Position numbers and translations under genes: made by a program. A DNA stretch of 64,000 nt, taken from positions 51,512 to 115,511 of the forward strand of contig DF237228.1 in assembly GCA_000708835.1 (NCBI GenBank), given 5' to 3'. The notes beneath the pieces were generated by a model. The model worked only from the letters and a program-made list of their open reading frames with translations, had not been told where the DNA came from and made no database searches. Shown piece by piece: positions 32,601-58,796 of the stretch; positions within the stretch are counted from its first letter, which is position 1, and each line of letters starts with the position of its first letter. This DNA comes from Klebsormidium nitens. Taxonomy: Eukaryota; Plantae; Klebsormidiophyceae.

Positions 32601-32784
32601 TTGAGCAAAACAAGGCCCTAAAAGAGTACCTCAAATGATATTGGAGCCAGTGGTACAACGCGGCTTTTGCTTGGAGCATGTTCAGCGTTTTTGGCACGAT
32701 TTGATTGGGAGCCTAGAAGTGAAACGGCTTGTACAATTGGCCCTCAAGGTCTGGCCATTTGATGTTCATGCCTGGCGGCCGCTT

Positions 32785-33505: not shown

Positions 33506-33693
33506 TCAATGACCAGGTTTTGTTCGGCGACTCATTGAAGAAGTAACCGTTGCGAAAACAAGTACATTCATCCTAACAGTATTGGTCTATGTTCTAATTG
33601 TGATTTACTCGTATATATTCGTACTTAAGACCAAGATAACACGGTGTGCGCTTTGACGGGTCCTCGTCAAAGCGGCCTCCTCTCTTCGTCCTA

Positions 33694-34070
33694 CAACTAA
33701 CCATCTGTTGAACGGCATAAAAATCTGCCAGCCACAAAGCGCCGCGTGCCCCCCCTTTTCGGCGAGGCTCGCTGCCGCGCTGCACCAAGGTCGCCCCGAA
33801 CACCTGCAGGGTCAGTGACAAGTTGGCACTGACCCAACTTCGGAACCCGCCACTGACCTGATAGCCTGATAACCCTATAGTTTCGTCGTCCGAACGAGCC
33901 TTTGCCGTCCAATTGCGAGCAGCGCGCGCAGATTCACTGACTGGGTCGTCACTGAGTCAGTGACTCGGACTCTGACTCAGAATCCATTGCCAGGGATGGA
34001 TGGCCTTACGATATCGTGTCACTGAAGGGAAAGGACGACTCACCGTCCGATAAACCTTCAGGTGGTTGCA
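33694..34070. promoter_or_regulatory. Conserved intergenic block, copy 2, upstream of primase-helicase copy A
   Basis: The left part matches 28629-28855. The motifs gccgtcc.at.gcgagcagcgcgcgca and gaagg.aaggac..ctcaccgt..gataaa match 45671-45855. TGAGTCA/TGACTCA occur at 33953 and 33973. Confidence 0.6.
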
Positions 34071-34359
34071 GAATATGAAAAAGGCGGGCCCGACTCGGCA
34101 GTCTCAGCCTGGTTCGACAACTTCTGGAAGCTTTAGTCAGCCATAATCTGAGTCAGCACTCGGAAGCTTCGAAGCTTGGAAGCTTCTGAGTCCAAGCATA
34201 GTCTAGAAAGAAAAGCGGATTCACGTAAGCAGAAGCAGAGCAGGGAGAGGTTCTTCAAGCACAACCTTACGTACGACTGGCCTAGCTGCTTGAAACATGG
34301 GTATTAATGTCGGATCTTTCATTCGAAGATAAGCATTCTCCAGACCTCATTTCAATCGA

Positions 34360-35690
34360 ACGACGGCTCGGACAGTACTTTGGCAAGAGCTCACAATCTC
34401 GAATTCCGCCGTGGACGGGAGTCACGCTGTCCATCTAGAGGAACCCTCATCTACGAATCTGTCTTCGTGGACGGCTCGGACAGCACTTTCGCAGAGAGCT
34501 CGCAATCTCGAATTCCGCCTTGGACGGGAGTGCTGTCCATCTAGAGGAACTCAATCACGAATCTGCCTTGATAGACGGCGTGGACGGCTTGGACAGCACT
34601 TTGAAAGATGTCACAATCTTCATTCTTGATAGTTGTAGACGGGAGTGTTGTCGATCCAGAGAGAGGCTCATCTAGGAAATTGCCTCGATGGACAGCTTGG
34701 ACGGCTCGGACAGCACTTTGGCACGGAGCTCAAAATATCGATTCCCGCCGTGGATGGCAGTGCTGTCCATCTAGAGGAACTCTCATTCACGAATTTGTCT
34801 TCATGGACGGCTCGAACGGCTCGGACAGCACTTTGGAAGAGTAGCTCATTCGTATTCTGTTTCCAGCTTCACCACCATGGAGAGCGATGGCGCAATGCTT
34901 TGGCTTGCAACCTACCAGGCTGTGGACTTTTAGGGTTCGAACGTACACGTGATGACGTTTTGCAATTGGTGCCTGGTATCTTTGGCTCATAGCCTGGATA
35001 TTCCCAAGTCCACCTTGAACATTTGTTGGGATTGGCCGTCTGCTTCACGCACGTCCTGCCTTTCTGCCTAACTGCAAGACTGAAGAAACATTGGCCCTTT
35101 TTTGTGACAAGCCGCCTTGCATATACAACATGCCCTGAATCTACTATCGAATGCAGGGGTCGGAAAACTCTGGAAACCACTCGACATCGTCTGATGGTGA
35201 CGATGCGAAGGTGCTGACGACGAGTCTTCTGAATCGAAGGACGAGGAGACTGCATCGGACAAGGAGATGCTGGACGACCTTTCACAGCCGGTTGATTCCA
35301 CACATGACCATCGCCTTGCGGACCAAGAAAGAGAGATGGGAGCAAGTACGTTGGTGAGCCGGAGCCTACTCGAGTGCAGCTCAATTAGCGTCTCTATTCA
35401 CGTATTTCTCTCTCACTGACAAGACTTTGGAATTAGCTCACGATCTTGACTTGGATCCTTCGATGGATAGTGATGCAGTCCATCTAGCTCATCTACCAAT
35501 TCGTCTTCATTGACAGCTTGGACAGCTGAGCCAGCACTTTGAAAAGAGCTCACGAATCCGATTCTGGCCTCGATACCGGCCAGGAGCGGACGGGACTGCT
35601 GTCCATCTAGAGAAACTCTTAACTACGAACTTATCTTCATGGACAGCTTGGACGGCTCGGACAGCACTTTGGAAGTAGCTCATGATTTCG
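34360..35690 (+). repeat. Arrays of a ~100-120-bp repeat (GGACGGC/GGACAGC triplet + CTGTCCATCTAGAG), forward orientation: 34360-34850 and 35420-35690
   Basis: Unit consensus ...gtgctgtccatctagaggaa.ctc.tctacgaatt.gtcttcatggacggcttggacggctcggacagcacttt...; about 5 plus 2.5 copies. Confidence 0.85.
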
Positions 35691-38600
35691 ATTCGGCTTC
35701 GCCTCCGTCATTGGCCTTCGGAGGTTTAAATTGGACCCTGTGCTGTGGGCTCACAACTAAGTTGCAGACTTGTGTGTTTGATTCTGACGATGTGTGCAAT
35801 TGGTGCAGGGAGCCGCAGCTCGCGACTTGGTTGCCAAAGGCTATGTCGTGTTCACGGCAAGCACCCAGTGGGACCCCAAGGCAAAGAGAGGGAAGGGAGG
35901 AAAGAAAATGATACCCCCACGAGATTGGCCGGCCTCTACCTTAGCAAATTGCCTGAGCGACCGCTTCTTCCAGCCCTATAATACGCTGCTGATCAACACG
36001 GCAGCTTGCTCTCTGAGAGACCGAGCACGGCGCGTTTGATGCTCCTCGAGTGCGCACGGGCAGCGGGGGAGTACACGTCTACTTCTCTTATGGAAGAAGC
36101 CTTGAATCGGGGCTGGGCGTCGAGACGCCGACCCACTTTGCAAAGCTGGAAGCTGAGGGTCCGAGATCCGGTATCAAGAAAGGAAGTTTTGAAGAAGGTG
36201 GGAGTCGACTCGCATGAGGGGCGTCAGTTCGAACGGTATGATCGCTTGCCCGCCTTCATCGTAAGAGCGACTTGGGGAGATAGCCCGGTACACCGTTGAT
36301 GGTGGAGGCGAGCTCCCCCCGGCAGAAGATCTGCCCCCTCTTCCGAAATGGTTGATCGGGATTCTGAACGAGCGAGTGGCGAGGGGCTCTGGGGAGCGCG
36401 CGAGACGGCCATCAGAGGTCCCAAGCAGGGCGGAATCCAGCGCGAGGGCCAGCGCCGTACTCGGGGCGCCGGATCTGACGGATCTTGGATTGCAGCAGGA
36501 AGTGGTCGAGGTGATGCGGGGCATGCTCAGCAGTTTTGGCGACAACTCCTCCGTCTTCTCGAAGGCAGAGTTGAGCACGGTTGCCGGTCTAGGGGTGGTA
36601 ATGTATCACTGGCGGAACGGTGCGGAAGGGCGAGTGTGTCCGTATGCGGAGGATGGGGCGCAGCCGCACAGCAGCAACAACTTTGGGCTCCTCAGGAGAG
36701 GGACGGAAATTACCTACGTGTGTCACAGCCAGCGGTGCAAGACCGGCGACGGCTGCCGCAACAAGAGACTCGGGCGTCTCATGTTTCCGGTGGCCGCATC
36801 TTTCTCGGATGCTTTTCCGCTGAACAGCGACCGCGATCGATTGTACAAGAATCGAGAACTGCTCCCCCTCTGGTTCTTGCGGCAGAACCTCTCGGTTTTG
36901 GCAGGTGAGGCGCGCTTCGAAGACTATCACGACTAGTTGCTATCAAGTAAAAGATTTATAGGTTTGTCCAGATTGGACAGACTTCCAGTTGAAAAAACTT
37001 GACTTCGTCCATTTGGCGGACGAAGTCAAATTCGAGGGACCCTGCCAGTGCGACCCTCGATGCCCCCCAGTCACAAGTGCACAAAGTCAGGTGACTATTA
37101 CCAACCTCTTGCAAGTTCGCTCTCGCAATTTTTGTGGCAGAAACTAACGGGTTTGACAAGTAAGTTGCGCTTCAAACAACACGTCAAAGTTGGATGACCC
37201 TCAGATCGCAAAATCCAGAATTGACTGTATTCCCGGTATACAGCATCCGGAGGTCCGTCCAAATTTGGACGGACTTCAAATTCGAAGGTCCCGGTCAGCG
37301 CCCCAACCCGGTCACCTGAGCACAAGGTTTCCATACATACAACTTCTTGCAAGCCTGTGCTCTTGCGTTTTATGCAGACCGGAGCCAATATCCATTTCTT
37401 GACTTACCTTCTGAGAACAGATTGAAGAAAGTCGGAATCAAGGACCACGTAGGGAGAAAAAGTATCAATTGCAATGGTTTGCAGGGAGCCGTGCACGAAC
37501 TGCTTCTTAGGACAAGTGACTGGCCGCCCGTAAACATATACTGTGGACGTGGGGTCGCCCCTCGCTTGTCAATTGACAAGTCGATGACATTTCGTTTGAG
37601 GTGATGAGGGAGGGGCGCTCATCATCGATCGCTTGCAGACGTACGCGGGCCGCAATCTCGTCTTCTGCAACGAGAAGTGGTTCTACTACAACGGGTCGAT
37701 TTGGGTGGTGGACGTGGCTGGGCGAGTTGCGAGCCAAATCTGCCGCGGGGAGCTCAACAAGATCAGCAAGGCGTACAAGAAAGAGACCGCGTCCGAAGCC
37801 GAAGGCGGAGGTTCGCAAGCGGAGGAGGAGAAAAGGCCCAGGAAGGAGAAGCTCGTGAACTTCAACTTCAACGCCAAGATGAGCCAGATCATGACGACTC
37901 TCAAAGGATATTGCCTGGAGCCTGCGTTCGAGGAGGCGCTCAATACCAACAGAGATGCGCTTCCTCTTCAGAACGGCGTCGTCTTGCTGGAGAGCGGGAT
38001 CCTGGTGGCACACCATCCGAAGGTGGGTATATGGTTCTTTTCACTACCAAGAACACCGAATACTTCATCGACACACGCTTCTCTGAAGTGCTTGCGCTCT
38101 GTCGTCAAGAAGCAGAAAGACGATCTTAATCCAGATAGCGGGCATCTGCCAAGTGGGTTCTCCCAACACCCCTGATTGAGATCTGGTGACTTTACAACGT
38201 TGTTAACATGTTTTGCCTTTGTTTATTTGTGTGATGGTCACCAGCACGTCGTGTACAGATATCTTTGGGGGCTGTCTGATCGATGCAGATCCTCAAAACC
38301 ACTTGCAGAGTTTTGCATTGCGTTGGTATATCACTTGATTCTATCCACTTTTCGTCTTGCAGTATCTCTGGTCTTTCAAGCTTCCCGTCCGGTGGCCGTC
38401 GACCGGGCTTGCCACGCCGCTGGGCAAGACGGGCGACTTCCTCCGTCAGATCACGCACACTCCAGAGGCGCTTGCTTATCTCCAGCGCATCCTCGAATAC
38501 GGTTTCACGGGGCACATATCCAACCAGGTCATGCTGACGATGATCGGGGAAGGCGGAGCGGGAAAAAGCCTTCTGTTGGCTCTGTTGAAGCGAGTGATCG

Positions 38601-40324
38601 GTCCGTTCTACAAGGACGTCTCAAAGGACATGCTCGTTACGTCCAAGGGGCAGCGGCCGCTAGGTAAAGGTGCCGCAAATCCAGCGGAAGCAGGTGAGCA
38701 ATACCCACCATAAGTAGCCAGCTCTAAGAACTTCTTGAAAAGAGGACCTTAGACCAGAATGAGGGCCTTTGTTGATGACGTCTTCTTTCTGATTGAAGCA
38801 TATTATACAACAAATACGGTTGAATCCTTTTGTGCAATTGTAGGACCCGACGTAGAGCGACAGAGGCTGCAAAGGTGCATGCGGAGGTGAGAAGAACTTC
38901 AAATCAAAAGAAACACATTTTGTGTTAGGTTCGAAAACGTCCGCAGCACCCCTCAAAAAACAAATGTGCAAGAGAGACATGCTTTCCGTCAGCTTTGTGT
39001 TAAAAGTACGCTTGTTATCCAGGTTTACGCGGCATTCGGATAGCGGTGTGCGCGGAGTCGGAGGATACAGATGAGTTTTCGGAGGCCAACGTGAAGCGGC
39101 TAACCGGAGAGGCGACTATCACGAGTAGAGCGCTCTACTCAGATTACGTCACGTTTGCCACAACCCAGCTGGTAAGTCTTGCCGAGAAACTTCACGATCA
39201 AATCTAGAATTTAAGAAGTTCTCAACTATGCTGTCCAAGCCGTCTGTGACGTCCATGAAGAGCCTTTTGTAGATGGAAATTCGTCTTGATGGACAGCACG
39301 GCTGTTTGGAGACTCCGATGACGTGGGTCTCAACGTCGGCCGAATGCTATATTTCGAGAGCTTCTAACCGCGTGGTCCGAACCGTCCGTGCCGTCCATGA
39401 GGAGCACTTTGTACATGGAGACTCGTCTTGATGGACAGCACAGCTGTCTCGGGGCCTCTCACGGCAAAATCTTGTCTTGCTAGACAACACAGCAGGCTGA
39501 AGCCTCGAGTTAAGAATCGACAGCTGATTTGGTCGAGCGATTTAGAAGGTTTTTCAACAATGCTATCCAAGCCGTCTGTGCCGTCCGTGAAAAGGGTTTG
39601 TAGAGTGCACCTCCTTTTCATGGACAACATTGGCGTCAACAGCTCTTCACCGGTGATTACCGGCGCTGTATCTAAGTTTCAAGGCCGTGAGAACTGATGC
39701 ATGATTCGATCTTGTCTGCAGCACATTCTCTGCTCGAACTACCCTCCCCGAGTGAAGACCTGGACGATAGCGCTCAAGCGACGCCTCCTGACGCTGGTGT
39801 TTCCGATGCGGTTCTTCTATCCCGACGAAGTAGGCTACAATCCCGACAACCCGTTTCATGGAATCCGTGATCTTGAATTGGAAGACGTCCTGAAGGCCGA
39901 GCCCGAGAAGCTGTTGGTGTTCTTGGTGCAAGGCGCCAAGGACTGGTACGCGAGCAGCAAGAGGCTCCTCGACATGCCGGAGAGCAGCAAGGCGTACATG
40001 CAGTCGTGGGAGCAGGAGCACGATCCGTTTGCAGCCTTCCTTCAGCAGGAGGGAAGAATGAACATCAAGGCTTTTGAGTCCACGCGCAGTCTCATGGAGG
40101 CGTACAACAACCCGGACAGTTTGGTCGACGGCGTCAGATTCGGCGATACAGATGCGCCCCAGATTCGGAATGATCGAAAGTTTGCGGAAGCTTGTAAGAA
40201 GAAGGGACTGGAGAGCCCGGATAAGCCGTCAGCGCTGAGATTTGCTAATCCGGGGCACATGGTCCGGGGTTATCGGGGCTTCCAGCTCAACACGCCGACT
40301 AAAGAGAGCATCTTGGAAAGATAG
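35157..40324 (+). pseudogene. Intron-containing Prim-Pol/Zn-finger/D5-SF3 primase-helicase, copy A (N-terminal half disrupted). Exons 35157-35353, 35809-36904, 37601-38022, 38363-38693, 39023-39171, 39722-40324
   Basis: Colinear with copy B and sharing its intron positions. It has a frameshift in the first exon, a 53-nt deletion at ~36005 removing the catalytic VLDFD motif, further indels, and TAA at 36262 where B has TAT. The helicase exons remain open (GEGGAGKS, CSNYPP, LKRRL). Confidence 0.88.
39215..39620 (-). repeat. Same ~100-bp repeat family, reverse orientation, in the last intron of copy A
   Basis: gctgtccaagccgtc.gtg.cgtccatgaag...ttgtagatgg...gatggacagcac is the reverse complement of the 34360 unit; about 3 copies. 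Confidence 0.75.
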
Positions 40325-40958
40325 CAAGTTCTATAAGATCGGTGACATACACGGCCTGGACGACGCTGGATATAAGTCCGTTCAAAGCTTTCTTATGTTT
40401 AACCCCTCTGAGATACCACGCGAACGAAATTCTCTATGGATTAGAGTACGTTCATCGAGACTTAGTTCGAGATATAGGATTGTACAACGCTTGTATCAAG
40501 TGCTTGTATATAGTGTAGATACAAGTCATTTGCTTTCAATGATCTCTATGTAGCCCCGTTTATTGCCTTTAGTAAACATGTAGTGTGCTATTGTGCTGCA
40601 TTCATGATCCGGTTCGTGTCTTGCATCAATCATCCGGCTTTTCCAGACTTGAATCCAGTTGCAGCCTGAGCATCTAAGAAGATTGTCCAAAGTTGAGCGT
40701 AATTGAGCGAATCTAGGACCGTGCAGCCGCCACATGCTCGGCAACAGGTCCAGCACCGATGACGTCAGCGATGAGCGACCGCAAAACGTTGGTGCCAGAC
40801 CTTGAAACACTTGGACAATTTCTGCACACAACCAAGCAACGGCACATGCGACGGAAGTGATTGCTTGCAAGCATGCGTTGATGCACGATCGATACACGGT
40901 CGATATCAATGCATGTAGCCGCGGTTACAAGGTTATGTTCGCAGTGGCTCGAGCGTCT

Positions 40959-42363
40959 CTAGCTTGTATCTTGCGCTACACATCGATTGTACGCCTTGGA
41001 GTTCTTAAACCTGCGCTCAAGATGCTTTTCAATCCATCTCGTTCGGGATTCTTCTAGCTCTCGGTTTGCGCGCTCTAGTCCCGTCTTATATCCTTCAAAC
41101 TCCAGAGGATATTTGCGGTACTCATTGATGAGTGCGCATTTTTCGTTCATCCATGCCCTCCACGGCATGCCGCCAGACTTTTGGGCAATGAAGCCGGGTT
41201 TAAATCGCCTGTCGTACAAAGGGGCAAAGAGCTCCGTAGCGTAGCGAGCCATTCTCTCATCTCGGTTCAAGCCGCCAAACGTGGAGCACGCAAAATGCTC
41301 GACGAATCGTTGGAGGGTCTTTGCTCTCGCATCCTGGTGCAGAAAATGATGATCATGCTGCAGTTAATGCGAGATACGTACATCCTTGACTTAGCAACCA
41401 AAAATATTGGCAGATGTACACAAAGTGATTAATGTGCACGCCGTTGGTGAATAGAACGTCGCTGGCTATTTGCTCGGCCCCCTTGCTGTGCCCAATCGAT
41501 GCTGCAGTCAATGAGAATGGATGTACACGGCTATCATTTTTTTTTAATTGTCTAAATTATTGAGTGATGTATTTCGATACTAGAAATGTACACGAATCTC
41601 TGTCCAATCTGTCCGAAATATTGAGTGGTGTACATCAAATACTAGAAATGTACACGAATCTCTGTCCAATTTGTCTAAAATACTGAGTGATGTACATTAA
41701 TCAACAAATATGTACACGAATCTTTGTTCAAAGAGGAACATTGTTGGTGCCTATGCGGACATTGGCTGACTTGATGCTAGTATCACCCTCTGTTGTTGTG
41801 TATGACTTGTGCTACGTACCTCAACCTTGTCAGGGTGAAAGTGCAGGGACCAAGTCTTGTGGTGTAATACAATCTCGCCGCGATCAAACATCTCTCGGGC
41901 TTGTTACGGAAGAAGATCCGCATCAGCAATGAGCCACGACAGGGGCGGATTCATATACGGTGGTGCCTTCGGCGTTGGTGGAGCGAGGATTGCATCGCGA
42001 CACATGATGCGGTACCTTGCCATATGCCGGGAGTGGAAGACAGCGCTCCCCGTCAAGAGTGCGTCGGTACTTTGCGACTGCGGCGGTGTTGCTCTGTCGC
42101 TTCAGCTGACGAGAGGCTTCCGGCTCCAAACCGTGATATTGGGACGGCGCACGATCGCTCGGAAGCTTGTACGGTTGGCACCCCATTCGCTTCCGATGAC
42201 CTTCCAAGGCTTGCTTCGACATGAATCTCTTGCTGCAGAGCTCGGACCCATTGGCACAGTGCCGCTCGAGGCAAATGAAGAAACCTCCGTCCCGCTTCCA
42301 AAGCTGTAACGAAGCGGCCGCTGCTAACGATTCGGCGTCATGATTTGATGTAACGGTAGACAT
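40959..42363 (-). CDS. Hypothetical 2-exon protein (42363-42016; ~41333-40959) with a zinc-finger-like motif and a bZIP-like basic motif
   Basis: FICLERHC...CSKRFMSKQALEGHRKRMGC, then KRQSNTAAVAKYR (N-x7-R). A GT donor follows YGK and the second exon reads DARAKTLQRF...RWIEKHLERRFK. Confidence 0.45.
41546..41730. repeat. AT-rich 62-bp tandem repeat, ~3 copies, in the intron of the 40959-42363 gene
   Basis: tagaaatgtacacgaatctctgtccaat at 41581 and 41643, with partial copies on either side. Confidence 0.85.
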
Positions 42364-44000
42364 GATGGACCTTTGGATGGTGACGATTATGGAAAGGGCG
42401 CTCGACGGGTCCTAAGTCAAAGAACGAATGCGCCTTTGAACAGAGAGGGTCCTCGAAAATCTCGAAACCAACAAGCCTTGCTTTCAGAATTCCTATTGAG
42501 ATCAACGTGCTTCAGCATAACAATCTTAGCCTAAGCTCGCCTTGAGCCTCTTAATGCAATAGGTATTCTGATCACAATCGAGCAATTTAATATAGGATAT
42601 CGGAGGGGGTGGGAGCCCGTTCACTCGCTAAAGCTAACGGCAGAGGTACTTCCAGAGCCCTCTATTAGTGCTATCGTCAAACTCCACGGCTCGCTGCAGC
42701 CTCTGCCGTGTTGATGCGATGGAACCTTGCCGGCGGTCGCTAGCACTGCCCGGAGCCGAATGGGACGCTCCACACTATTTGTTAATTGAAGTTCCCCCTC
42801 ACCCCAAACCAATCCTGTCCTGTCTATCCTATCGAAGCGTGCTATCAACCACAATATTCTCACGACATTCTAGGTGTGGTAGAGTATCACTCAAGAGCGG
42901 GACATGATGAGGAACTGTTGTCCGCCCAGTCTCTCCTGTCTGATTGTGCTATCAACAACAATCTTACAAACGTATGAACAAGTATGGTAGAATATCGGAT
43001 AGGATAACCTGCTGTCCGCCCCGTCTCTATTGGATTGGCTCTCTTGACGAATCACGAGGTTCAAAGCACTTCTGGTAACCCGGTATGTTCGAGATTGGAT
43101 GAATCACACAAACAGCTTTTCTGTTCGCCCTATCCGGGCCTTTTCCTCAAGTGGTGTTGATCTTGAAATTGTTTGAAATGCTGCTTAATTTTGCTCTTCT
43201 AGCAGCGCAGAACATGTTGGGAGCTTTGCAAGTTCTACAACTTCCTACCATCAGCAGCACTTGAAAAGCTATGGCATTGTGCTGCAATTGGGTGCACGAG
43301 CGACTAGATGCTGAAAAATTGTGCAATTGAAGATGGCGCACCTCTCTGCACGGATTGATTGGACGAGGCTACAAATCGCAGCCATTTCGGCGCTTATTGT
43401 GCTATCCGATGTTGGCAAGATCTATGGACGTGCTGCAGCCTACGGCCACAATTTCATACAATACGCTCAGTTAACGCTGGCAGGGTGGGCGGATTTTGCG
43501 TTCGTCTGGAACCTCATATATCATAACAGAGAACTTAACAACCATCAACCAACGGCAGCCTGGTTGGTGCTCCTCAGGGACTTGCGTGGTTGCGAAATTC
43601 TATCCTTCTCCATACGTCTTGATTGTATGCATACAACGGCTTGTACTTACAATATCATCAGCATTCTGCAGCTCTAAGTGTGCGGAGGATCGCAAAACAT
43701 GTATTGCATTCATTGAATTTGGCTATTTTCTAGAGTATCACAAATGAGATGGACCTACTCGATGTCATACTACTACAACGTCACGAGACTCGCACAACTC
43801 GCAGATTATGTCCCAACTCCGAGCAGGAAGCTTCAAACCAAACAACACAATCCAATGTCAAAATGCACAATATCTTTCATGATTGCAAGGTTTGCACAAC
43901 TCTCGTGTTTTCTACTGCCAACTCTACTTTTCTCTTGCCTAAACACCTTCAATAAAGACCATACACACAGCGATTTAACGATACTGGATGGTGGGTGTTT

Positions 44001-44807
44001 TCAAGTGCGGGTGGTGACAGTGGTCACAGTTACCACCTCAGCCTGTCCCTTAGAGGATCTCGTAGTGGTCGTGGTTGTGGTAGTTACTTGAGGCTGACGG
44101 TATAGGGTCAGCTCGGGTGGCCCCTGCTCATTTGCCATCAGCTCAGTCGCCCCCAGCTCAGTCGCCCCCAGCTCAGTTGCCCCCAGCTCAGCCGCAGCCA
44201 CCAGGAATGCTTCTGCATGGTATGTCACACTGGCATATGCAATTATCAGAGACTTCTTGTCAATGTCGTCCTTCTTGTAGGGCAGACCAACATATAGGAT
44301 GTACAGATCCATCCTTGTGGACTTCCCTGCCCGCGACTTGCCATAGAAGGTTTGTCCAAATGTCTGCCAGGAAGTAGGAGGATAGGCATAGAATCTCTTG
44401 AGCACAGTGACCAGATCGTCAACAAATGAGTCCACTTGTATCATTTGGGCTATGGCCAGGTTGACGTATTTGGCGTAATCCGCTATTCCCTGCACGTCTT
44501 CAGCACAGTAGGCTGAAATTGAGGAGCCGAAGACTGGAGAATTGGCTTCTCTGTATGGTGGAGTCGATCCGTTTTCCATGTAATTGTACCCATGTTGCTG
44601 GTGAAAGTTCCACTGCACAGTCTTCAGGGCTGCTGCAGACAAGCGGTCTATGTCCTTGCTAAGGTCTCCGTCCGAGCGATTATTGACTTCTGCCAATGGG
44701 TATGATTGAGCCAGTTGGTCAAGCAGATCCTTCAGAGATACCAATGCATAAGGTACCACGTATTTGATGATAATCTCCTTCACCTCCCTCACAACAATAT
44801 TACCCAT
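44001..44807 (-). CDS. Hypothetical protein (268-aa ORF, possibly a terminal exon) with an ELGAT x3 repeat and a Thr-rich tail
   Basis: Long open frame with protein-like composition and an acceptor-like ccctcag just upstream. A 15-bp unit cagctcagtcgcccc repeats ~3.5 times at 44139-44191. It contains FYGKSRAGKST. Confidence 0.55.
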   Translation of the reverse strand: MGNIVVREVKEIIIKYVVPYALVSLKDLLDQLAQSYPLAEVNNRSDGDLSKDIDRLSAAALKTVQWNFHQQHGYNYMENGSTPPYREANSPVFGSSISAYCAEDVQGIADYAKYVNLAIAQMIQVDSFVDDLVTVLKRFYAYPPTSWQTFGQTFYGKSRAGKSTRMDLYILYVGLPYKKDDIDKKSLIIAYASVTYHAEAFLVAAAELGATELGATELGATELMANEQGPPELTLYRQPQVTTTTTTTTRSSKGQAEVVTVTTVTTRT

Positions 44808-45670
44808 CTCGTTGGGCCTGAGGGCGTTAAAACATCAAATTCAACGGGTATGCACAGCTCTTGACCTGCATGGAAAATGACCACATCGTTGGCACCTTGG
44901 CACAATGAGGCATCTTTCAAAAACAGGCAGGCAGTTGAGCTCTTCTGCCAGGGAAAGGACTTCAGGACATCTCATACAATGTGCTCTCAGCATCTCTGCC
45001 CTTCAACAAGGGATTCCTTCAGCCCGATTATGAAGACTTGCCAGAGGAGGCTCATGGAACACTCCTGCAGGATGAGCACAGCGTGACTGCCAATGACACA
45101 AATCGACAAGCTATGCAACAAAACGCGATTTTTACATTCAAATGCACTCACCTGAAGCAGCCAGCAGTGGATGACCTGACGTCCAAGAGACAGCAAAGGG
45201 TGTGTGCGAAAGGAGGACTGTGCAATGAGTCCCTTTGCGCGCCCACAGACGGGCCTGGTTGCACTCTTCACGAGGGCCGTTTCGAAGTCCAGAGCATGAT
45301 ACAATCGACGCGCGTTTAGAGTTGAAGCTTGGCTTGGTCAACTGGCACCTCATCAACTTTTATGAACATGTGGTCGGTGACATCTGCACCTCTCTTCACA
45401 CGATTGGTTCAAAAGATTCTCGCGATGAGGTCCGTAAGGCCGGGGTAAAGTTTTGACCAATCAGGAGGCGCCACATCAGCCCGGAAAGATTGCAGGGGTA
45501 GGGGTCGCTAGCAGGTCCCTAACCGCTGTCGAACACCCACACTGGAGCTGTAGCGGGTTCAACCGGGCACTAACTTCACCGGAGGTAAAACCGCGATTTC
45601 GGGCCGAAAGCCTGCAGGTCCACCACAGACCGGCTAGGTGACCATCACAACCATTTCACAAATTCTGTTC

Positions 45671-45855
45671 TTCCGAACGCCGTCCGATCGCGAGCAGCGC
45701 GCGCAAATTTTAGCCTCAATTGTCAACTGCGTGACAAGATGGACACGTCACTGCCAAAGGAAGCTTCCCGGAAGGAACGGGAAAGACACCTCAACGTCCG
45801 ATCGGTTTGAAGGAAGGACACCTCACCGTTGATAAATGTTCCGGCGGTTGACAGT
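45671..45855. promoter_or_regulatory. Conserved intergenic block, copy 3, upstream of the copy B region
   Basis: tccgaacg...gccgtccgatcgcgagcagcgcgcgcaaatt and gaaggaaggacacctcaccgttgataaatgttccggcggttgacag match 33889-33934 and 34024-34070. Confidence 0.6.
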
Positions 45856-46410
45856 GCACGAAGACAAAGTCCGATCAGTACCGGGCCCGAGCTGACTTGG
45901 CATCCTGACCTTGCAGCCTGCCGCCTCAGTCCGCTGACTCAGCAACCTGACTTTTGACTAGCTTATCAGACTGCCTAGACTCTAGAAGCACACGCCAGTT
46001 CAGCGGTTTTAGAAGGTTACAGAAAGCCTGCCCCGGCCACGTAGCAGGCTGCAGTTTGCCTTCGGATGGTCTGGGCTGGCCGGAAATTGTGGTATAAAAG
46101 CTCAGAAACTCCCATTTCCGTCCTTCCAAAGTTGATCCTTTTCCATACTTCTCTTCGATACTTCTGCCAAGCACTCCAAAGCCCAATCCAGTATGGCTTA
46201 GCAAGATCAAAGCGCCTTCAAGCCCATCGAGATATCGCCCGGCGGGGACGAAGTCGTAATGGGGGTGTAAGAAGTACAAGATTCGGGTCTCATCCTCATC
46301 CTCCTCCTTTCATCCTGGCGCCGGATGAACTCACCCAAAGTCAGGATGAAAGGCCTCATCTTCCTCAATGCATTCCTCATTCTGTTCATCTGCAGGGGCG
46401 CCTCTACCCC

Positions 46411-46764
46411 NNNNNNNNNNNNNNNNNNNNNNNNNNNNNNNNNNNNNNNNNNNNNNNNNNNNNNNNNNNNNNNNNNNNNNNNNNNNNNNNNNNNNNNNNN
46501 NNNNNNNNNNNNNNNNNNNNNNNNNNNNNNNNNNNNNNNNNNNNNNNNNNNNNNNNNNNNNNNNNNNNNNNNNNNNNNNNNNNNNNNNNNNNNNNNNNNN
46601 NNNNNNNNNNNNNNNNNNNNNNNNNNNNNNNNNNNNNNNNNNNNNNNNNNNNNNNNNNNNNNNNNNNNNNNNNNNNNNNNNNNNNNNNNNNNNNNNNNNN
46701 NNNNNNNNNNNNNNNNNNNNNNNNNNNNNNNNNNNNNNNNNNNNNNNNNNNNNNNNNNNNNNNN
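46411..46764. other. Assembly gap (N run)
   Basis: Run of N, flanked on the right by G/A-rich low-complexity sequence. Confidence 1.
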
Positions 46765-49212
46765 GAAAAGGGGGTTAAGGGGGTCCCAGGGAAAGAGGAA
46801 AATGAGGCGGAGGAGGGGGATGAATAGGGGGGTATAGGGGGGAAAGGGGAATGAGAAGAATGAGGCGGAGGAAGGGTGGGTATAGGGGGGGGGTGTAGGG
46901 ATATAATGAGGAGGGAAATCGTGAATACCAGTAATCATGTAATTATTACAAGTCCATTACGACTTTCTCCCGGCGGGCTGCTGGTGTCAGCTAATGCCTC
47001 AGTGCAATCACCGCTGGCCGCCCTGCACGCTGTTTTTGATTCCTTGATCATTGCAAGATTCTTGCATGCACATCAGTTTTCAAGGGGTTTCTAGGTACAG
47101 AAAGCGCCCTTCCTGCTTCAATCATTTGTGCAAGCCTAAAGAGCCCTATGGTTGATGCAGCCCGTGCAATCAGATCAGTGAAAGTCGGGTTCAGGGAGGT
47201 TTTTTCGCTACAGCTGCTGCAGCCTCTGCCTCCGGGAGAGGGCCGGGAGATTTGCAGCGCTTGGGAGGGTTCTGCCTTCCACATCCCTCCCAGCTCCTCG
47301 CTTAGAGTCGCTTGATCGCAACAGTCTGTCTGCAACTTCAAAGACACTAGACGATGGCAAGAGGAGAAGAGAACGGGGTGCTCTTCCAGGAATTCTTGAA
47401 CAGAAGGCGCCTCGAAGTTGAACAGCTGAAGTGTCAGAATAAGACCAAAGTGAGTCACAGTGAGCTGCTCAATGGGTCTGGTCATTCTCCACCCCGAAAC
47501 CCTACGACCTTGCCGATTCTGTGGATGCGAATTGCACGTGAGATTGCGAGGCACCTTAACCAATTACAATGGTCTGCGACGCGGAAGACATACTCAATCA
47601 GCTCACGTCATGCAGGCTGATTCTGAAAGTTGGAGTCTCCTTGGGTTCACACTTTTCTCAGATCTGAGAAGACATACAGTACAAAGTGCATCAGTAGATA
47701 ACGCCATGCAGTGGCTGTTCTCTACGTCGGCGAAAGTGCAGTCAGCATGTCTCAAGCGCCAGAGTGGCCCGCTTTACGGAACACTCTTCTTGCATGGATC
47801 AATCAGTCACAGTGGTCTGAGTCAGCTTGTGTCAGCCGCGTCAAGATGAGCAACTGTGAGCCGACTGCATCACACTATCTTGCACCAGGGGTCCGCTCCG
47901 GAAATGGCCATGAATAGATATGAAGCTAACGCCAGCCGTTCTTCGGACGGACATGAAGACGGCGCGTCTCGGGCAAACGCCACCCTCGATAGCTCCTCGA
48001 GCAACGCCAAGAGACTTGACGGAGCAGAAGCACAGTGCACTGTGGACGTTGATGCCAGGGTCGTCGAGGACAACAGGCTTTTGACCCCGGTAACCTGTCT
48101 ATGACACGTTTCCAGCACTTCGCGAGTTCCCCGTTCAAGACCTGATGACAAACCGTCCAGCTCGCGAGCTTGAACGGCTTACAGGTGCATCGAAAAGAAG
48201 GGCTCTTAAAAGCGCTCGCGTATTGTAGTGAAATCTTGCAAGTGAGGAGACGGAATCTTGCCTTTATATCCCCGGCGTTTCGACCCGACCTGAGGTCACC
48301 GTGGACGTCAACATCAACGCATGTTGGGGGAACGTTTGGCTCCCTCGTTCGGTTTTGGCGAAGGGCGCCGTTGTCGTATATTGTCTCTGTCTCTAGACCT
48401 CCGGGCACGCTTGTACCGTGTCCCAAGGATGGGCCAAGGGCAGCCGTAACGCCATCTTTGCAAGAAAAATCTCTGCAAAAGGCTTTACCAAGCAGATGAT
48501 GGCACGTGGCACTGAGGATTCGTGGCCGGATGTCTTCCGAGGGACTCTGGTTCTCGACGCTGTAAAACCCCTCACTGCCTGCTCGTCCCTGGCCAGGAAC
48601 CTCTGCCAAGGTCGGCGAGTCAGAGGCGTGGCGTCAAGCGCAAGGTGGAGGGTGATGGGGAGTCAGAACGGGTAGGGATTCTCGATGCCGGGTTCTTACA
48701 ATCCTGGGAAGCAAGCGTCATCGTCGGACGGTAATTACCAACGTGCCGACGAAGGAAGTTTCGGGTCAGACGGGAAAAGCATCATAACCTGCCCTTCGAC
48801 TCGATTAAAATGTCCCCACACCTCAGGCCGGCAGAGTGGCGCATCTTGGTTGCTGACATGTGGCCTGACGCTCAGACGCATCTCAATGACCAAGTCTCAC
48901 TCGGACAGCACGCTGTCCATCAAGAGGAATGCCGCTTTACAAACATCCCTCGTAGACAAGGTAGCCGGCCTCGACATCATCTTGAGAGTTGTCTAACATC
49001 TCTCGGTTCCCCCTCTGAACGGGAGTGCTGTCCACGTAAACGAACTATGTGTCCGGATGTGATGTCCGGATGTGATGTCCGGATTGCCTTCATGGACAAC
49101 TAAACCGGCTGAAACAGCCTTTTTAACAAGAGGTCACAATGTCCATTCCAACGAACGAGACCAGAACCATCCATCTAGGCTGCCTCCAGAACACTGTTAC
49201 GAACTGATGCAG

Positions 49213-52200
49213 GGGCCGGACAGTTTCGACTCCGCTTCATCAGACGGTGGTGATCATTGCGAAGGTGCGAACGACGAATCTTCTGAAGCGGACGATGAGG
49301 AGACTGCTTCGGACAAGGAGATGCTGGACGATTGTCCACAGGCGGTTGACACTGTACAGGACCATCGTCTTGCGAACCAAGAAAGAGAGATGGGAGCAAG
49401 CGCAATGGTAAGCTGACACTCACTCGAGTGCACCTTAATGAGCCTCCTCATACACACATCTCCCCTTCATGGTCAGCAATACGGAATTAGCTCGCGAGAT
49501 TGACATGGCCGTCCGCGAACGGGAATGCCGGGCTGTCCAACTACAGAAAGCCTCCGTCACAAATTCGTCTTCGAACTTGGACAGCTAATTGGACGGTTAG
49601 ACAGTACTTTAAAAAGCAGCTCACGATCTTGGATCTGAGAATTCACGGACAGAAGTGCTCTTCATCAAGAGGATTTTCAATTCAAGACTCTCCTTGAGGG
49701 ACAGCATAGACGGCAAGGACGGCCCTTTACAAGTAGCTCACCGTTTTCGATTCTGGATGCGGACGGAACTGCCGTCCATCTAGAGGGACGTTTATCTACG
49801 AAACTTGGTTTATGGACAGCTTGGACGGCTTGGACAGCACTTTCTGACAGTAGCTCACAATGTGATGGAAGTTTGTCACTGTCATTAGCTTTCAAGTGCT
49901 ATTTTTTCCGGGCTCGGGAAGTGTAACCTACCAGGCTTTCGTGCTTCAAAAGTGCAACGCTTTATCGTGGTGACGTGTGCGATGAAAGCGCGACCAATGC
50001 CTCTGGCTCTTAGCCTGGGGATTCTCAGTCCCCCTTTGACCATCTGCCGGAACAACGCTCTGCTTGTTGGGCGGCCTGCTTTTCAAATACTTAGATGGAC
50101 AGTAGTGCTGTCCATCTAGAGAAAGTCTCATTACGAATTTGTCTTCATGGACGGCTTGGACGGCTGGGACAGCACTTTAAACTTTTGCTCACGTTTGATG
50201 TGGCTTCGTCGCCGACGGACAGTACTGCCGTCCATCTAGAGAAAGTCTCATCTACGAATTCGTCTTCATGGACGGCTTGGACGGCTGGGACAGCACTTTG
50301 AAAGTTTGCTCACGTTTGATGTGGCTTCGTCGCTATGAATTGTGGAGGGCTACTGACTTTGTGCATTTTGTTCGTGACCAGGTTGAAGACCTCTAAACTG
50401 ATGACGTGTACGATCGATGCAGGGAGTTGCGGCTCGAGCCTTGGTTGCGAAAGGCTATGTCGTGTTCACGGCAAGCACCCAGTGGAACCCCGACGCAAAG
50501 GGAGGGAAGGGAGGGAAGAAAATGATACCCCCACGAGATTGGCCGGCCTCTACCTTAGCCGATTGTCTGACTGAACGCTTCTTCCAGCCCTACAACAACA
50601 CGCTGCTGATCAACACGGCAGCGTCTGGAATCGTCGTGCTAGACTTTGACCTTGGTGATGGGGGCATGGAGCAGCTTGCTCTCTGGGAGACCGAGCACGA
50701 CGCGTTTGATGCTCCTCGAGTGCGCACGGGCAGCGGGGGGGTGCACATCTACTTCTCTCACCGAAGAAGCGTTGAGTCGGGACTGGGCGTGGAGGCCCCC
50801 ACGCACTTTGCAAAGTTGGAGCTGAGGGTTCGAGATCCGATATCCGGAAAGGAGGTTCTGAAGAAGGTGGGAGTCGATATGAGGGGCGTCAGCTCGAACG
50901 GCATGATCGCTTGCCCGCCGTCATCGTATGAGCGACTCGGTGAGACGGCACGGTATACGGTTGACGGCGGAGGCGAGCTTCCCCCGGCAGAAGATCTGCC
51001 TCCTCTTCCGAAGTGGTTGATCGAGATTCTGAACGAGCGAGTGGCGAGGGGTTCTGGAGAGCGCACGAGACGGCCATCAAAAGTTCGCAGCAGGGCAGGG
51101 CCTAGCGCGAGGGCCAGCGCCGTACTCGGGGCGCCGGACCTGACGGATCTTGGGTTGCAGCAGAAGGTGGTCGAGGTGATGCGGGGCATGCTCAGCAGTT
51201 TCGGCGACAACTCCTCTCTCTTCTCGAAGGCAGAGCCGAGCACGGTTGCTGGTCTAGGGGCGGTGATGTACCACTGGCGGAATGATGGGGGAGGGCGAGT
51301 TTGTCCATATGCGGAGGACGGAGCACAACCGCACAGCAGCAACAACTTTGGTCTTCTCAGAAGAGGGACGGAGATCACCTACGTCTGCCACAGCCAGCGG
51401 TGCAAGACAAGCGACGGCTGCCGGAACAAGAAGCTCGGGTGTCTCATGTTCCCGGTGGCCGCATCTTTTTCGGATGCTTCTCCGCTCAACAGCGACCGGG
51501 ATCGCTTGTACGAGAATCGAGAACTGCTTCCTCTCCCGTTTCTGCGGCAGAACCTCTCGGTTTCAGCAGGTAAGCCGCGCCTTGAGCAGCATCAGTCCTA
51601 AGGCGCTTTCAATATACAAAATTGGGAGGTTATATTTCCGGTATATAACCTCTGAATTTTGACTTCCTCCATTTGGTGGAGGAAGTCAAAAACGAGGGCC
51701 AGGGGCAGCGCGCCCTCTAGTCATTGATGCACGAGGTCTGAAGACCATCATCAATTTTGCAAGTCGTGCTCCCGCGAATGAGTGATTGAAGCTCTCTGTT
51801 TCAGCAAGTAAGCCGCGCTTTGAACAATATCAGTCCTAAAGCGCTATCAATCTACGAGATTTAGAAGTTGTATACTTGGGTATACAACCTCTAAAATTTG
51901 ACTTCGTCCATTTGGCGGACGAAGTCAAATCCGAGCATTCAATCTCAAATATCCAAAGGTTGAACTCGCCTATCTGGTAGGCGAGTTTCCATTTGAGGGC
52001 CAGGGCTTGCGCGCCCAAGTCCCCGTCGCAAAAGGCTTGCTTACATCATCAATCTCTTGCAAGCCTGTGCTCTTGCGATTATGCAGACCTGAATCAAGAT
52101 CCGTTTCTTGTGTTACTTCTGAGCAGATTTCGAGAGATTCGAGACCCAAAGATTGTATTTGAAGTAGAAATATCGAGAAGTAGTTGTGCACGAAGTGCTT

Positions 52201-55103
52201 CTTAGGACAATTGACTAGCCGCTTGTGAACAAAGACGCAAGGTTGCCACTCGACTGTCGATCGCTTTCCACTGACAAGTCGCTGACGTTTCTTCCAGGTG
52301 ATGAAGGAGGGGCGCTCATCATCGACCGCTTGCAGACGTACACGGGCCGCAAGCTCGTCTTCTGTAACGAAAAATGGTTCTACTGGAACGGGTCGATTTG
52401 GGTGGTGGACGTGGCTGGGCGAGTTGCGAGCCAGATCTGCCGCGGGGAGCTCAACAAGATAAGCAAGGCATACAAGAAGGAGAAAGCGTCTGATGCCGAA
52501 GGCGAGGGTTCGCAAGCGGAGGAGGGAGAAAAGCCCAAGAAGGAGAAGCTCGTGAACTTCAACTTCAACGCCAAGATGAGCCAGATCATGACGACTCTCA
52601 GAGGATATTGCCTGGAGCCTGCGTTCGAGAAGGCGCTCAATACCAACAGAGATGCGCTTCCTCTTCAGAACGGCGTCGTCTTGCTGGAGAGCGGGATCCT
52701 GGTGGCACACCATCCGAAGGTGGGTATGAGGTTGCGGATGACTGACAGCTCAACTTCTTGATCAGCAAAGCACTCCTTCTGTCGTTGACATTAGTTTCAT
52801 TGTGCACTGCTGGCCAGCTTTGCAATGTTTTCACTATTGAAGTCCCAGCCACAGCTTTGTTGGCACACACTGCTCTCTCGAGTAATTGCACGCTTTCTGT
52901 CAAGGAGCAGAAAGGCAATCTTAAGCAAGGCAGCGGCATCTGCCACGGAGTACTATTCGTCCCAATATCCTTGATCTGAGTTGAATCTACTTCATTAAGG
53001 GGTGACTTAGTGTAGGGTGAAACTCTCAACGAGATTAGGTGGAAGCTGTCGTATTGAAGTAGCTTGAACAGAGCTCTAATATCTGCATGCTTCTCGGTTA
53101 CCGGTGAAAATTACATGCTGAAGGCTTGAAGATCCTGCTTTTCTTGTGTGATAGTCATCACCACATCGTCAGTGGATCCCTTCGGTTTTTATCTGGTCGA
53201 TGCGACTGCTTGGCAGAAATGCAGAACCTTGCATAGCAATTGTGTGTCACTGAACTCTCTCCATTTACTCTCTTGCAGTATCTTTGGTCTTTCAAGCTTT
53301 CCGTGCGGTGGCCATCGACGGGACTTGCCACGCCGCTGGGCAGGACGGGCGAGTTTCTCCGTCAGATCACGCGCACTCCGGAGGCGCTTGCGTATCTCCA
53401 GCGCATTCTTGGATACGGGATCACAGGTCACATCTCCAATCAGGTCATGCTGACGATGATTGGGGAGGGCGGAGCGGGAAAAAGCCTTCTCTTGGCTCTG
53501 CTGAGGCGTCTGATCGGTCCGTTCTACAAGGACGTCTCGAAGGACATGCTCGTGACGTCCAAGGGACAACGGCCGCTGGGCAAAGGTGCTGCAAATCCAG
53601 CAGAAGTAGGTGAGCACCTTGCAGACACGACTTATGCTTGAAGTTGACATCAATGAGACGCTCTGAACATGATAGAAGGGGGATAGAAGCCTTCAATGAT
53701 AGGGAGTTCGTATGCGCTTGAAGCAAATCACCCAACATGACGGTTAATCAACTTGTGTCGTGTTGATGCTGCTTTTTGTACAAAGGTGATCTCGGCAACG
53801 AGGTCTTTATCAAGTACTAACGGCCGTGCCTTCAGATGAATGAGATTTGTTTGCGTCATAACCAAACATTGTTTACCCAGGTTTACGATACATTCGGATA
53901 GCGGCGTGCACGGAGTCTGAAGAGACGGATGAGATAGCGGAGTCCAACGTGAAGCGGTTGACCGGCGAGGCGACCATCACGAGTAGAGGACTCTACACGG
54001 ATTATGTCACGTTTGCTACGACTCAGCTGGTGAGTTCCTCGTGCCCGATGCTGGCGCAATCATGTCTTCTTTGCGAGAAACTGCTATAGCCATGCTTAAG
54101 TTGCCATAGCTGTCTGTGACGGGTTGTCTTGTTGGACGACAACGCCTTCCAGGGCCCTTTGCATTCTCACGGCCGAAGTAGTTTCATTTAGATGTTTCTT
54201 GTAAGCTGTCCCAGCCGTCCGTGCCGTCCATGAAGAGGATTTTGTAGATGGAACCTCATCTTGATGGACAGCGCACTTGTCCAGGTTCTCGAGGCAAGTC
54301 TTTGCAGCCGAAGTCGGATTCTGAAAGCTTACCAACCATGCTGTCCAAGCCGTCTGTGCCGTCCATGAAGAGCGTGTTACAGATAGAAGCCTCTCTTGAA
54401 GGACAGCATTGCCGTCGACATTCACCACCTTTTCAACGATGCCAAGTCATTTAAAGTCACGCTTGTGTGTGCTCAAAAACGATCTTCATCCATTCTGCAG
54501 CACATCCTCTGCTCAAACTACCCGCCCCGAGTGAAGATCTGGACGATTGCGCTCAAGCGACGCCTCCTAACGCTGGTCTTCCCGATGCGGTTCTTCTATC
54601 CGGACGAAGCGGGCTACAATCCCGACAACCCGTTGCATGGGATCCGAGACCTTGAATTGGAAGACGTCCTGAAGGCCGAGCCCGAGAAGCTACTGGTGTT
54701 CTTGGTGCAAGGCGCCAAGGACTGGTACGCAAGTGGCAAAAGACTCCTCGACATGCCGGAGAGCAGCAAAACGTACATGCAGTCATGGGAGCAGGAGAAC
54801 GATCCGTTTGCAGCCTTCCTTCAGCAGGAGGGACGAATGAACATCAAGGCTTTTGAGTCCACGCGCAGCCTCATGGAGGCGTACAACAACCCGGACAGGC
54901 TGGTCGACGGCGTGAGATTCTGCGAAACCGATGCGCCACAAATCCGAAACGAGCGGAAGTTCGCGGAGGCTTGCAAGAAGAAGGGGCTGGAGGGCCCGGA
55001 TAAGCCGTCAGCGCTGAGGTTCGCTAATCCGGGGCACACGGTCCGGGGTTATCGGGGCTTCCAGCTCAACACGCCGACTAAGGAGAGCATTCTAGAAAAA
55101 TAG
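49213..55103 (+). CDS. Intron-containing Prim-Pol/Zn-finger/D5-SF3 primase-helicase, copy B, apparently intact. Exons 49213-49407, 50423-51569, 52298-52719, 53279-53609, 53881-54029, 54501-55103; further 5' exons possible
   Basis: Prim-Pol motifs SGIVVLDFD, VRTGSGGVHIYF, GVDMRG...IACPPS; Zn module CPY...HSSNN...YVCHSQRC; D5_N (GDEGGALII...WFYWNGSIW, LPLQNGVVLL); Walker A GEGGAGKS; Walker B region IAACTESEE; sensor CSNYPP; Arg finger KRRL. All five introns are GT-AG and phase-consistent. Confidence 0.9.
49560..50330 (+). repeat. ~100-bp repeat family, forward arrays in intron 1 of copy B
   Basis: ctgccgtccatctagag...tctacgaa...ttcatggacggcttggacggctgggacagcacttt at ~49770, ~50105 and ~50225, plus degenerate copies. 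Confidence 0.8.
51563..52090. repeat. Tandem duplication (~238-bp unit) of the exon 2 donor plus hairpin module in intron 2 of copy B; the equivalent in copy A is ~36897-37380
   Basis: tcagca(g/a)gtaagccgcgc at 51563 and 51801. Each unit has two stem-loops, including 14-bp perfect stems at 51657-51691 and 51896-51930. Confidence 0.8.
54170..54420 (-). repeat. ~100-bp repeat family, reverse orientation, in the last intron of copy B
   Basis: gctgtcccagccgtccgtgccgtccatgaagagg.ttttgtagatgg, about 2 copies; orthologous to 39215-39620. Confidence 0.75.
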
Positions 55104-55434
55104 CAAGTTCTATAAGATCAGTGACATACATGAGCTAGACGACCTATCCGTTAAAAAACGCTGGATAGAAGTCCGTTCAAAACTTCCTTATGTTTAACAA
55201 CTCTTAGTTATAATGGGCACGAGATTAGATGCGGATCCGGGTACGTTCACTGAGGATAAGCCTGAAAAATGTAGGAGTGCATTCCTTCACAGTGCTTGTA
55301 AAAAACCCTTGTATGCAGTTGCGGTGTGAATATGGCTGAACTTCTTGCTGTCTCAGTGATCTCTTTATCGTTTGTGCGATGCCTTTGAATCAACTCTCCG
55401 GCTTCTCCATGCGCGGATCCTCTCATCGAGTGCA

Positions 55435-55790
55435 AATGGAGTCATTACGTATGCATTCGAACTCTAAAAGTCTAAAGCCTGGTAGGTTGCAAGCAAAAGC
55501 ATTGCGTCATCGCTCTCCATGGGGATGGAGCTGGGAACATTATACAAATGAGCCACTTTCCAAACTGCTGTCCGAGCCGTCCGCGCTGTCCATGAAGACA
55601 AAATCGTAGATGGAAAGTCTTCTAGATGGACAGCACTCACGTCCACGGCGGAAATCGAGATTGGAAGCTCTCGCTAAAGTGCTGCCCAAGCCGTCCGCGC
55701 TGTCCATGGAAACAAAATCGTAGATGAGAGGTCCTTTAGATGGACAGCACTCCCGTCCACAGCAGAAACTCCATACGTGAACAAAGATCG
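55435..55790 (-). repeat. Inverted copy of 34690-34960 (repeat units plus adjacent unique sequence)
   Basis: The reverse complement reads ...ggacggctcggacagcagtttggaaagtggctcatt...ccatggagagcgatgacgcaatgcttttgcttgcaacctaccaggct..gacttttag.gttcgaa, matching 34805-34945. Confidence 0.85.
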
Positions 55791-55913
55791 TGCATATTGT
55801 CTTGACGTAGAATCTACAGAGGGGTATGAACGCTACCTTCAATCAGTGCGGCGTCATGACCGCTACATGGCTCTATCAATCGGTGGACTCATGACCGGAT
55901 TTCCATGACGCAA

Positions 55914-58700: not shown

Positions 58701-58796
58701 GTGGGCGATTCCCTCCTTTCTACACTTTGTGTGCGTTTTCGGAGAAGCACTTTTTCTGTGTTAGAATTACTAGGAGGCATCAGTTTCATTCCAGCT

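Follow-up and report, generated by a model that had tools for sequence, protein, structure and literature searches.

A multi-copy family of spliced, viral-type primase-helicase genes with iteron-like repeats in Klebsormidium nitens

Replicases that fuse an archaeo-eukaryotic primase (AEP) to a superfamily 3 (SF3) helicase are found together with tyrosine recombinases in Polinton-like viruses (PMC12220804, PMC11161782), viral insertions are reported from Klebsormidium (PMC5294986), and spliceosomal introns occur in endogenous giant viruses and mirusviruses (PMC12768974, PMC12344493, 10.64898/2026.10.09.758095). The origins of Staphylococcus aureus pathogenicity islands (SaPIs) have opposed iterons around an AT-rich region, bound by the C-terminal winged helix of the helicase (PMC9371898), while Helitrons and Replitrons are algal transposons with intron-bearing replication-type genes, hairpins and short repeats (PMC10288648). 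Here we describe two primase-helicase genes of viral type, copies A and B, in a stretch of 64,000 nucleotides of the alga Klebsormidium nitens (the window; contig DF237228.1, positions 51,512 to 115,511). We read A (broken) and B (intact), tentatively and with a little less than even confidence, as members of a multi-copy spliced family that is a long-resident, capsid-less selfish replicon.

Polinton-like viruses are integrated in algal genomes and, like A and B, have a primase-polymerase fused to an SF3 helicase; an intronless cassette close to copy B fits their pattern. A and B differ from them in five apparently old spliceosomal introns and host-shifted codon use, and no capsid gene, packaging gene or clean terminal repeats were found in the window. 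Green-algal endogenous giant viruses can carry spliceosomal introns as A and B do, and since such introns are known from endogenous giant viruses and mirusviruses their presence in a viral-type gene is not new in itself. In contrast to the D5 replicases of giant viruses, however, A and B have a primase of the PF09250 Prim-Pol type, no giant-virus core gene nearby in this window and a gene expanded as a family. SaPI-type initiators, to which we take P4 alpha to be related as a phage-satellite or plasmid initiator, work with opposed short repeats around an A+T-richer spacer, a layout that the 96-bp units described below resemble; A and B differ in being eukaryotic, spliced and multi-copy, with many candidate units in the introns and in both flanks. 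Unlike Helitrons and Replitrons, A and B have no HUH endonuclease, and priming would be de novo and not from a nick. No description of an old, multi-copy, spliced primase-helicase family with iteron-like arrays was found in the literature searched, which mostly did not extend to subscription papers; the family may figure in the D5 tree or its context in the supplement of PMC5294986.

Structure, splicing and conservation of the primase-helicase genes

Both copies consist of six exons and five GT-AG introns, with identical codon positions of the introns. Copy B (49207..55103, + strand; exons 49207-49407, 50423-51569, 52298-52719, 53279-53609, 53881-54029 and 54501-55103) is fully open, its 2853 nt of coding sequence giving 950 aa with no internal stop and intron phases of 0,1,0,1,0. 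Copy A (35151..40324, + strand; exons 35151-35353, 35809-36904, 37601-38022, 38363-38693, 39023-39171 and 39722-40324) was correctly recognised as a gene by an earlier note on this DNA, made from the sequence alone, but the earliest ATG in the register of B lies at 35151, six bases before the 35157 given there. Exon 1 of A carries indels, and exon 2 has lost 3 and 53 nt by two deletions and gained 1 and 4 nt by two insertions, leaving frame breaks in these exons and two stops when A is translated in the frame of B, whereas exons 3-6 are gap-free. The two colinear copies, the identical intron positions and the open frame of B were as the earlier note had said; its near-identical helicase exons were an overstatement, as identity is 83, 89, 95, 89, 83 and 91% for exons 1-6, of which exons 3-6 are meant. 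Introns 1, 2 and 5 are 75-78% identical in aligned columns and 30-63% over their length, figures confined to the three introns, unlike 3 and 4, whose global alignment was sound.

The NCBI models KFL_002790160 and KFL_002790170 correspond to A and B and share the five junctions of B. KFL_002790170 (P0015, copy B) has a 25-codon upstream exon at 48886-48960 in place of the first 2 codons of B, and KFL_002790160 (P0003, copy A) is without the Prim-Pol domain. The frame-preserving splice sites, the spliced contigs described next and the agreement with these models exclude chance as the origin of the gene structure. Splicing, and the presence of host genes on the scaffold, rule out a bacterial contaminant, which was also considered. 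Third-position G+C is 0.69 in copy B, and CpG depletion did not single out the region of A and B.

Relatives of A and B are spliced, in three studies. Four of 24 listed sequencing runs were compared with 35301-55300, and contigs were obtained in three of the four (none in X7); the RNA nature of the runs is a guessed label and the data are assembled contigs, so that depth ranks nothing. In contigs from the three runs, 80-99% alike, precisely the length of introns 1, 2, 3 and 5 is missing; a joint that spans intron 4, with no length given, is consistent with its removal. In run X1 one contig connects 49213-49408 with 50428-50940, removing intron 1, and a second connects 52444-52717 with 53277-53402, removing intron 3. 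The 15, 62 and 6 letters between joints in runs X2 and X5 are the expected exon bases at introns 1, 2 and 3, and intron 5 is skipped at GT..AG in X2. The joints 49409->50140 and 35664->50421 fit an unspliced relative with a repeat unit in its intron 1. No RNA run was listed for copy B itself, one run having a share of 0.06. The splice-junction check proposed in the earlier note came out positively in relatives, with four introns removed exactly and the fifth consistent.

Database look-ups named at least 13 K. nitens models as members of the family; they are spread over 12 scaffolds, of which 9 are shorter than 35 kb, a dispersed multi-copy state such as that of transposable elements. Pairwise identity ranges from 28 to 94%, with clusters at 89-94% and links down to 28%. 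Between A and B dN is 0.053 and dS 0.356, giving a dN/dS of 0.15 (bootstrap 0.11-0.19; 923 codon pairs), in line with the purifying selection suggested earlier; in exon 2 the ratio is 0.14, although this exon is now broken in A. A ratio this low does not tell whether the gene is selfish or domesticated, since selection on the protein is kept up in either case.

The ends of environmental protein fragments suggest that the intron sites of the family are old and common to members diverged to about 40% identity. For 13 of 19 internal alignment ends the distance to a donor of B is between -1 and +5 residues (chance about 4%), and for 6 of 14 starts an acceptor is no more than 2 residues away (chance about 3%); ends that match splice sites persist down to 38-42% identity. 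These counts come from 26 short matches hand-picked from search results, with tolerances fixed after inspection of the data. Together with the spliced relatives, they are in keeping with the long-resident nuclear lineage, expressed through host splicing, that the earlier note had supposed.

In a tree of the helicase region (IQ-TREE, LG+G4, 40 of 94 rows) the K. nitens models form one clade (10/10 rows, support 100/99), and the same clade was recovered with FastTree on 94 rows, 10 short rows being left out. The helicase tree is midpoint-rooted and uninformative on direction. The nearest relatives are environmental proteins of 26-30% identity. All named close relatives are from K. nitens, and no other plant or alga is represented among the relatives looked up. 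In a subfamily of 37-41% identity P0181 retains the Prim-Pol motifs and P0166 and P0167 are without them, being either helicase-only derivatives or annotation errors. Viral contigs searched with the intronless protein of the window (see below), with A1, P0019, A3 and P0023 and with the repeat pattern gave no usable locus. Metagenome contigs gave none with A1 and three weak loci with A3, of which L001 and L002 look bacterial and unrelated.

Pfam finds Prim-Pol (PF09250, E 1e-8) in exon 2 and D5_N (PF08706, E 8e-8) in exon 3. In copy B the acidic pair and the catalytic histidine motif of the Prim-Pol domain are present (they are broken in A), and the zinc-binding, Walker A and arginine-finger motifs are intact. 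The SF3 ATPase has its Walker A, its motif C and its arginine finger, and K681, N779 and R794 are kept in at least 90% of 103 alignment rows. The structure model of P0015 made from this alignment has a mean predicted local distance difference test score (pLDDT) of 85.9, with residues 1-75 of low confidence, and predicts a single chain composed of a pRN1-type Prim-Pol, a zinc finger, a D5/SF3 helicase and a winged-helix tail, which together would cover residues 87-965. The modelled residues 87-299 match the Prim-Pol of pRN1 ORF904 with Z 12.9 (root-mean-square deviation (rmsd) 3.3, 171 aligned). The D5-type helicase matches have Z of 27-30: African swine fever virus (ASFV) C962R with Z 30.1 (rmsd 4.1, 477 aligned) and the SaPI5 primase-helicase PriRep5 with Z 27.5 (rmsd 5.1, 401 aligned, reaching residue 965). 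ASFV C962R, poxvirus D5 and the SaPI5 protein align over about 445-965, tail included. The helicase fold of ASFV C962R, poxvirus D5 and a punuivirus is that of A and B, at only 13-20% identity in fold alignments, and the fold matches in the viral library and the Atlas were D5-type proteins of giant viruses, phages and one virophage at 10-20% identity. Phage records matched at 22-26% over about half of the protein.

No Pfam match to a HUH Rep endonuclease was obtained, and the modelled domains account for residues 87-965; protein-primed polB and RVE integrase likewise had no Pfam match in 108 frames, and the model leaves no room for either. Nor does the protein belong to the host eukaryotic primase, PrimPol or MCM families, since Pfam gave only Prim-Pol and D5_N and the look-alikes are viral clusters. 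The earlier proposal of a viral-type replication gene resident in the nucleus holds in these respects: spliced relatives exist, dN/dS is 0.15, no HUH, protein-primed polB or integrase domain is found and no known host family takes it in.

Repeat units in the introns and flanks

The repeat arrays, which are absent from the earlier note, bear most on mechanism. With an iterated profile 20 full copies of a 96-bp unit were found between 34413 and 55758 and 0 elsewhere in the window. The unit contains a 7-bp motif up to five times, typically as a tandem of three with a period of 9 bp on one side of a spacer and a single inverted copy on the other. The heptamers face apart across the spacer, which is 35-36 bp long in 12 of 16 units measured, and 4 of the 20 units have no exact motif. 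In 34300-55800 the heptamer was counted 59 times, where shuffling gave 5.6 on average and at most 15; the counts are 8 in the host part 1-28600 (shuffle mean 11), 5 in 28600-34300 (shuffle mean 1.5) and 1 in 55800-64000.

In intron 1 the units run forward, and those in intron 5 and downstream of B are in reverse orientation; units also lie upstream of both genes. Upstream of A an array at 34342..34956 (+) has four full units, one partial unit and about 110 bp common to the right-hand array. Two units lie in intron 1 of A (35465..35682, +) and three in its intron 5 (39212..39637, -). Copy B is preceded by two degraded units (48903..49136, +) and has five in intron 1 (49522..50312, +) and two in intron 5 (54190..54416, -); the two units and flank downstream of it (55441..55770, -) are an inverted copy of 34634-34956, 81% alike over 323 bp. 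The intron-5 units of A and B cluster together (0.874), and spacer sequence drifts while heptamer period and spacer length stay. Opposed short repeats at fixed spacing recall the layout of SaPI-type origins. Rfam gave 0 matches in 28000-64000.

Strong hairpins were also found in intron 2 of both copies, at 36996-37032 and 37250-37277 in A and at 51656-51692 and 51895-51931 in B (z -3.6 to -9.1 for the three folded). The hairpin at 51656 departs from the other intron-2 hairpins on both sides of one pair. Intron 2 of copy B contains a 148-bp internal duplication which repeats the donor region.

Boundaries and neighbouring genes

Homology between A and B extends from about 1.3 kb upstream of the start of A to about 250 bp beyond its stop. 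It includes an upstream non-coding module at 33846..34223 (+) in A, homologous to that of B at 45619..46002 (+) with a local score of 100 against a shuffle maximum of 40 and a host-window control maximum of 43. The arms at 34.6 and 55.7 kb were considered as true terminal repeats and are rejected as such, since they also match intron 1 and are not clean. A 103-bp block of 86% identity occurs at 28628-28729 and 33693-33795, the second copy preceding a different gene; the block at 28628, where host-like genes give way to mobile-looking DNA, may mark a left end.

A compact intronless cassette at 56869-62004 (+) lies 1.8-7 kb from B and contains a Prim-Pol/D5 gene of 948 aa (59158..62004, +) together with a likely recombinase and two further frames of 241 and 113 aa; no capsid gene was seen in it. 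The likely tyrosine recombinase (57657..58700, +) is of the Polinton-like-virus type, with a feature score of 0.98 to Preplasmiviricota clusters. It has no Pfam or PHROG match, its nearest annotated cluster is 16% PF00589, and its single-sequence fold (pLDDT 38.6) was too poor for a fold search. The intronless primase-helicase has nine relatives, mostly environmental, and a third-position G+C of 0.50. The earlier note had suggested comparing it with A and B, and with 25% identity to the spliced family and a separate clade it proved to be no close relative; as the direct source of A and B it is ruled out on the same grounds. The cassette recurs, since the K. nitens model P0010 fuses pieces of its recombinase and its primase-helicase. 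P0018, an exon-6-type fragment of the spliced family, and P0008, of the intronless family, are each on a Logan contig of 8654 nt; if this contig is one and the same, there is a second place at which the spliced and intronless families are linked. Behind the cassette, at 62076-62343, lies a tandem pair of 122 bp.

No Pfam match to a capsid, packaging ATPase, polB, VLTF3 or integrase was found in 108 frames (106 of them in 25-64 kb), a search which divergent capsids can escape. PHROGs gave no match to a double jelly-roll capsid, a minor capsid or a packaging ATPase among 11 window proteins, with two assembly gaps and the window end limiting the view, and no giant-virus core gene (polB, capsid, A32 ATPase, VLTF3) was found among the frames of at least 80 aa in 25-64 kb of this window. 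The gaps are at 46411-46764 and 62965-63370, with 42 bases repeated on both sides of the second. The interval between A and B contains a weak C2H2 zinc-finger frame at 40959-42411 (-) and, at 41549-41731, a tandem repeat of 61 bp; a frame of 277 aa at 44001-44834 (-), also in this interval, has no family match. To the left an apparent multi-exon gene at 29113-32638 (+) has a weak SAP match (E 7e-4, below the cut-off) and is followed by a degenerate tandem array at 32773-33504. At the right end a transposase-like frame (63683-64000, within 63371-64000, -) has no Pfam or PHROG match and carries a motif which we take to be of KDZ transposase type. Host-like genes are a UBA and ERCC4 (Mus81-like) gene at 21373-25045 (+), an R3H-associated gene at 27900-28450 (-) and one at 1200-4130 (-), presumably of MYB type by its motif. 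Third-position G+C of two host exons is 0.90 and 0.92.

Nature of the element and its possible mechanism

In the replicon that we tentatively favour, the repeats are likely the copying start sites of the enzyme itself, by analogy with the SaPI layout. The winged-helix tail would bind the heptamers of the 96-bp units, the helicase ring would load and melt the A+T-richer 35-36-bp spacer, and the Prim-Pol domain would prime and extend the DNA of the element. Extra copies might re-enter chromosomes by host repair or by a recombinase acting in trans, for example that of the neighbouring Polinton-like cassette, and re-entry of this kind would leave copies both in tandem and dispersed, with neither terminal repeats nor target-site duplications. 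Every step of this scheme, from binding through copying to insertion, is inferred.

Several observations weigh against the replicon. The SaPI origins lie just downstream of the gene and the units of A and B are in introns; the spacer is only 52-69% A+T; and the units, which also form weak hairpins (z -0.6 to -3.1), could be a small transposon in their own right. The association of repeat and gene family rests on this window and on one hint from contig joints. Two models of the 41% subfamily (P0166 and P0167) are without Prim-Pol motifs, and the spliced contigs, from runs whose RNA label is guessed, come from relatives and not demonstrably from copy B. The unit has no integrase of its own, and the 323-bp inverted arms (34634 and 55441, 21 kb apart) also match intron-1 sequence and have no shared outer end. 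Neither element ends nor target-site duplications, for which the earlier note had proposed to look, were found at five candidate boundary pairs of A and B. The transposon nature that the note suggested is not borne out by the comparison of A with B in this window, which gave no common ends, no duplicated target site, no integrase of the element itself and no new insertion. As no near-identical pair was found either, and the synonymous divergence of A and B is 0.36, there is no sign of current mobility.

An endogenous virus, either Polinton-like or giant, or some larger composite element might instead have had these genes as its replicase; the introns would have been gained in latency, and the capsid and integrase genes would lie outside the window or have decayed. 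We consider this possible but rather doubtful. Polinton-like viruses regularly have AEP-SF3 fusions and tyrosine recombinases (PMC11161782, PMC12220804), several distinct giant-virus insertions are present in K. flaccidum (PMC5294986) and a latent algal giant virus has introns in 61 of 506 genes (10.64898/2026.10.09.758095). Moreover, the best fold matches are viral D5 proteins and a Polinton-like cassette lies 1.8-7 kb from B. The replicase of that cassette, however, is in a separate clade, gene spacing is loose, and the third-position G+C of B stands between its intronless neighbour and the host. The 108 frames hold no match to a capsid, packaging ATPase, polB or VLTF3, although Pfam can miss divergent capsids, and introns common to a family diverged to about 40% point to spread after the introns were gained.

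Selection on the protein would also be expected of a domesticated viral enzyme that serves the alga, for instance in repriming or repair or as a dominant-negative brake on incoming viruses, the repeats being regulatory or incidental. Spliced relatives in three studies, the dN/dS of 0.15, old introns, host-shifted codon use and subfamilies apparently without a primase domain agree with it. Nevertheless we find it unlikely, because the many copies on short scaffolds, several of them partial, and the breakage of A despite a low dN/dS form a birth-and-death pattern, the neighbourhood is mobile DNA, and the named close relatives come from one species only among those looked up. Less probable still is that the genes are passive cargo of another transposon or of a segmental duplication, the 96-bp units being an unrelated non-autonomous transposon inserted before A and B split. 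This would suit a unit without an insertion enzyme, the transposase-like frame at 63683-64000 (presumed KDZ-type motif, no Pfam match) and the recurrence of the 103-bp block of 28628 at 33693 before a different gene, but it leaves the selection on primase and helicase motifs unexplained. The maintenance of heptamer period and spacer length during spacer drift and the grouping of the intron-5 units of A and B (0.874) also speak against it.

That A and B represent a new order of eukaryotic DNA transposon, intron-bearing and capsid-less, with its own primase-polymerase-helicase and iteron origins in introns and flanks and no HUH nicking, protein-primed polymerase or transposase of its own, is a possibility we regard as doubtful. 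The replicon reading can be tested directly, as it concerns one 950-aa protein and one defined 96-bp candidate site. If domestication were true, the alga would have an extra virus-derived enzyme for priming and unwinding in its nucleus. Known self-copying DNA elements of eukaryotes use a protein-primed polymerase or HUH nicking, or are viruses with capsids. A spliced primase-helicase family with its own origins, if the replicon reading is true, would add one more path by which viruses become transposons, observed after the loss of the capsid, in the algal lineage leading to land plants.

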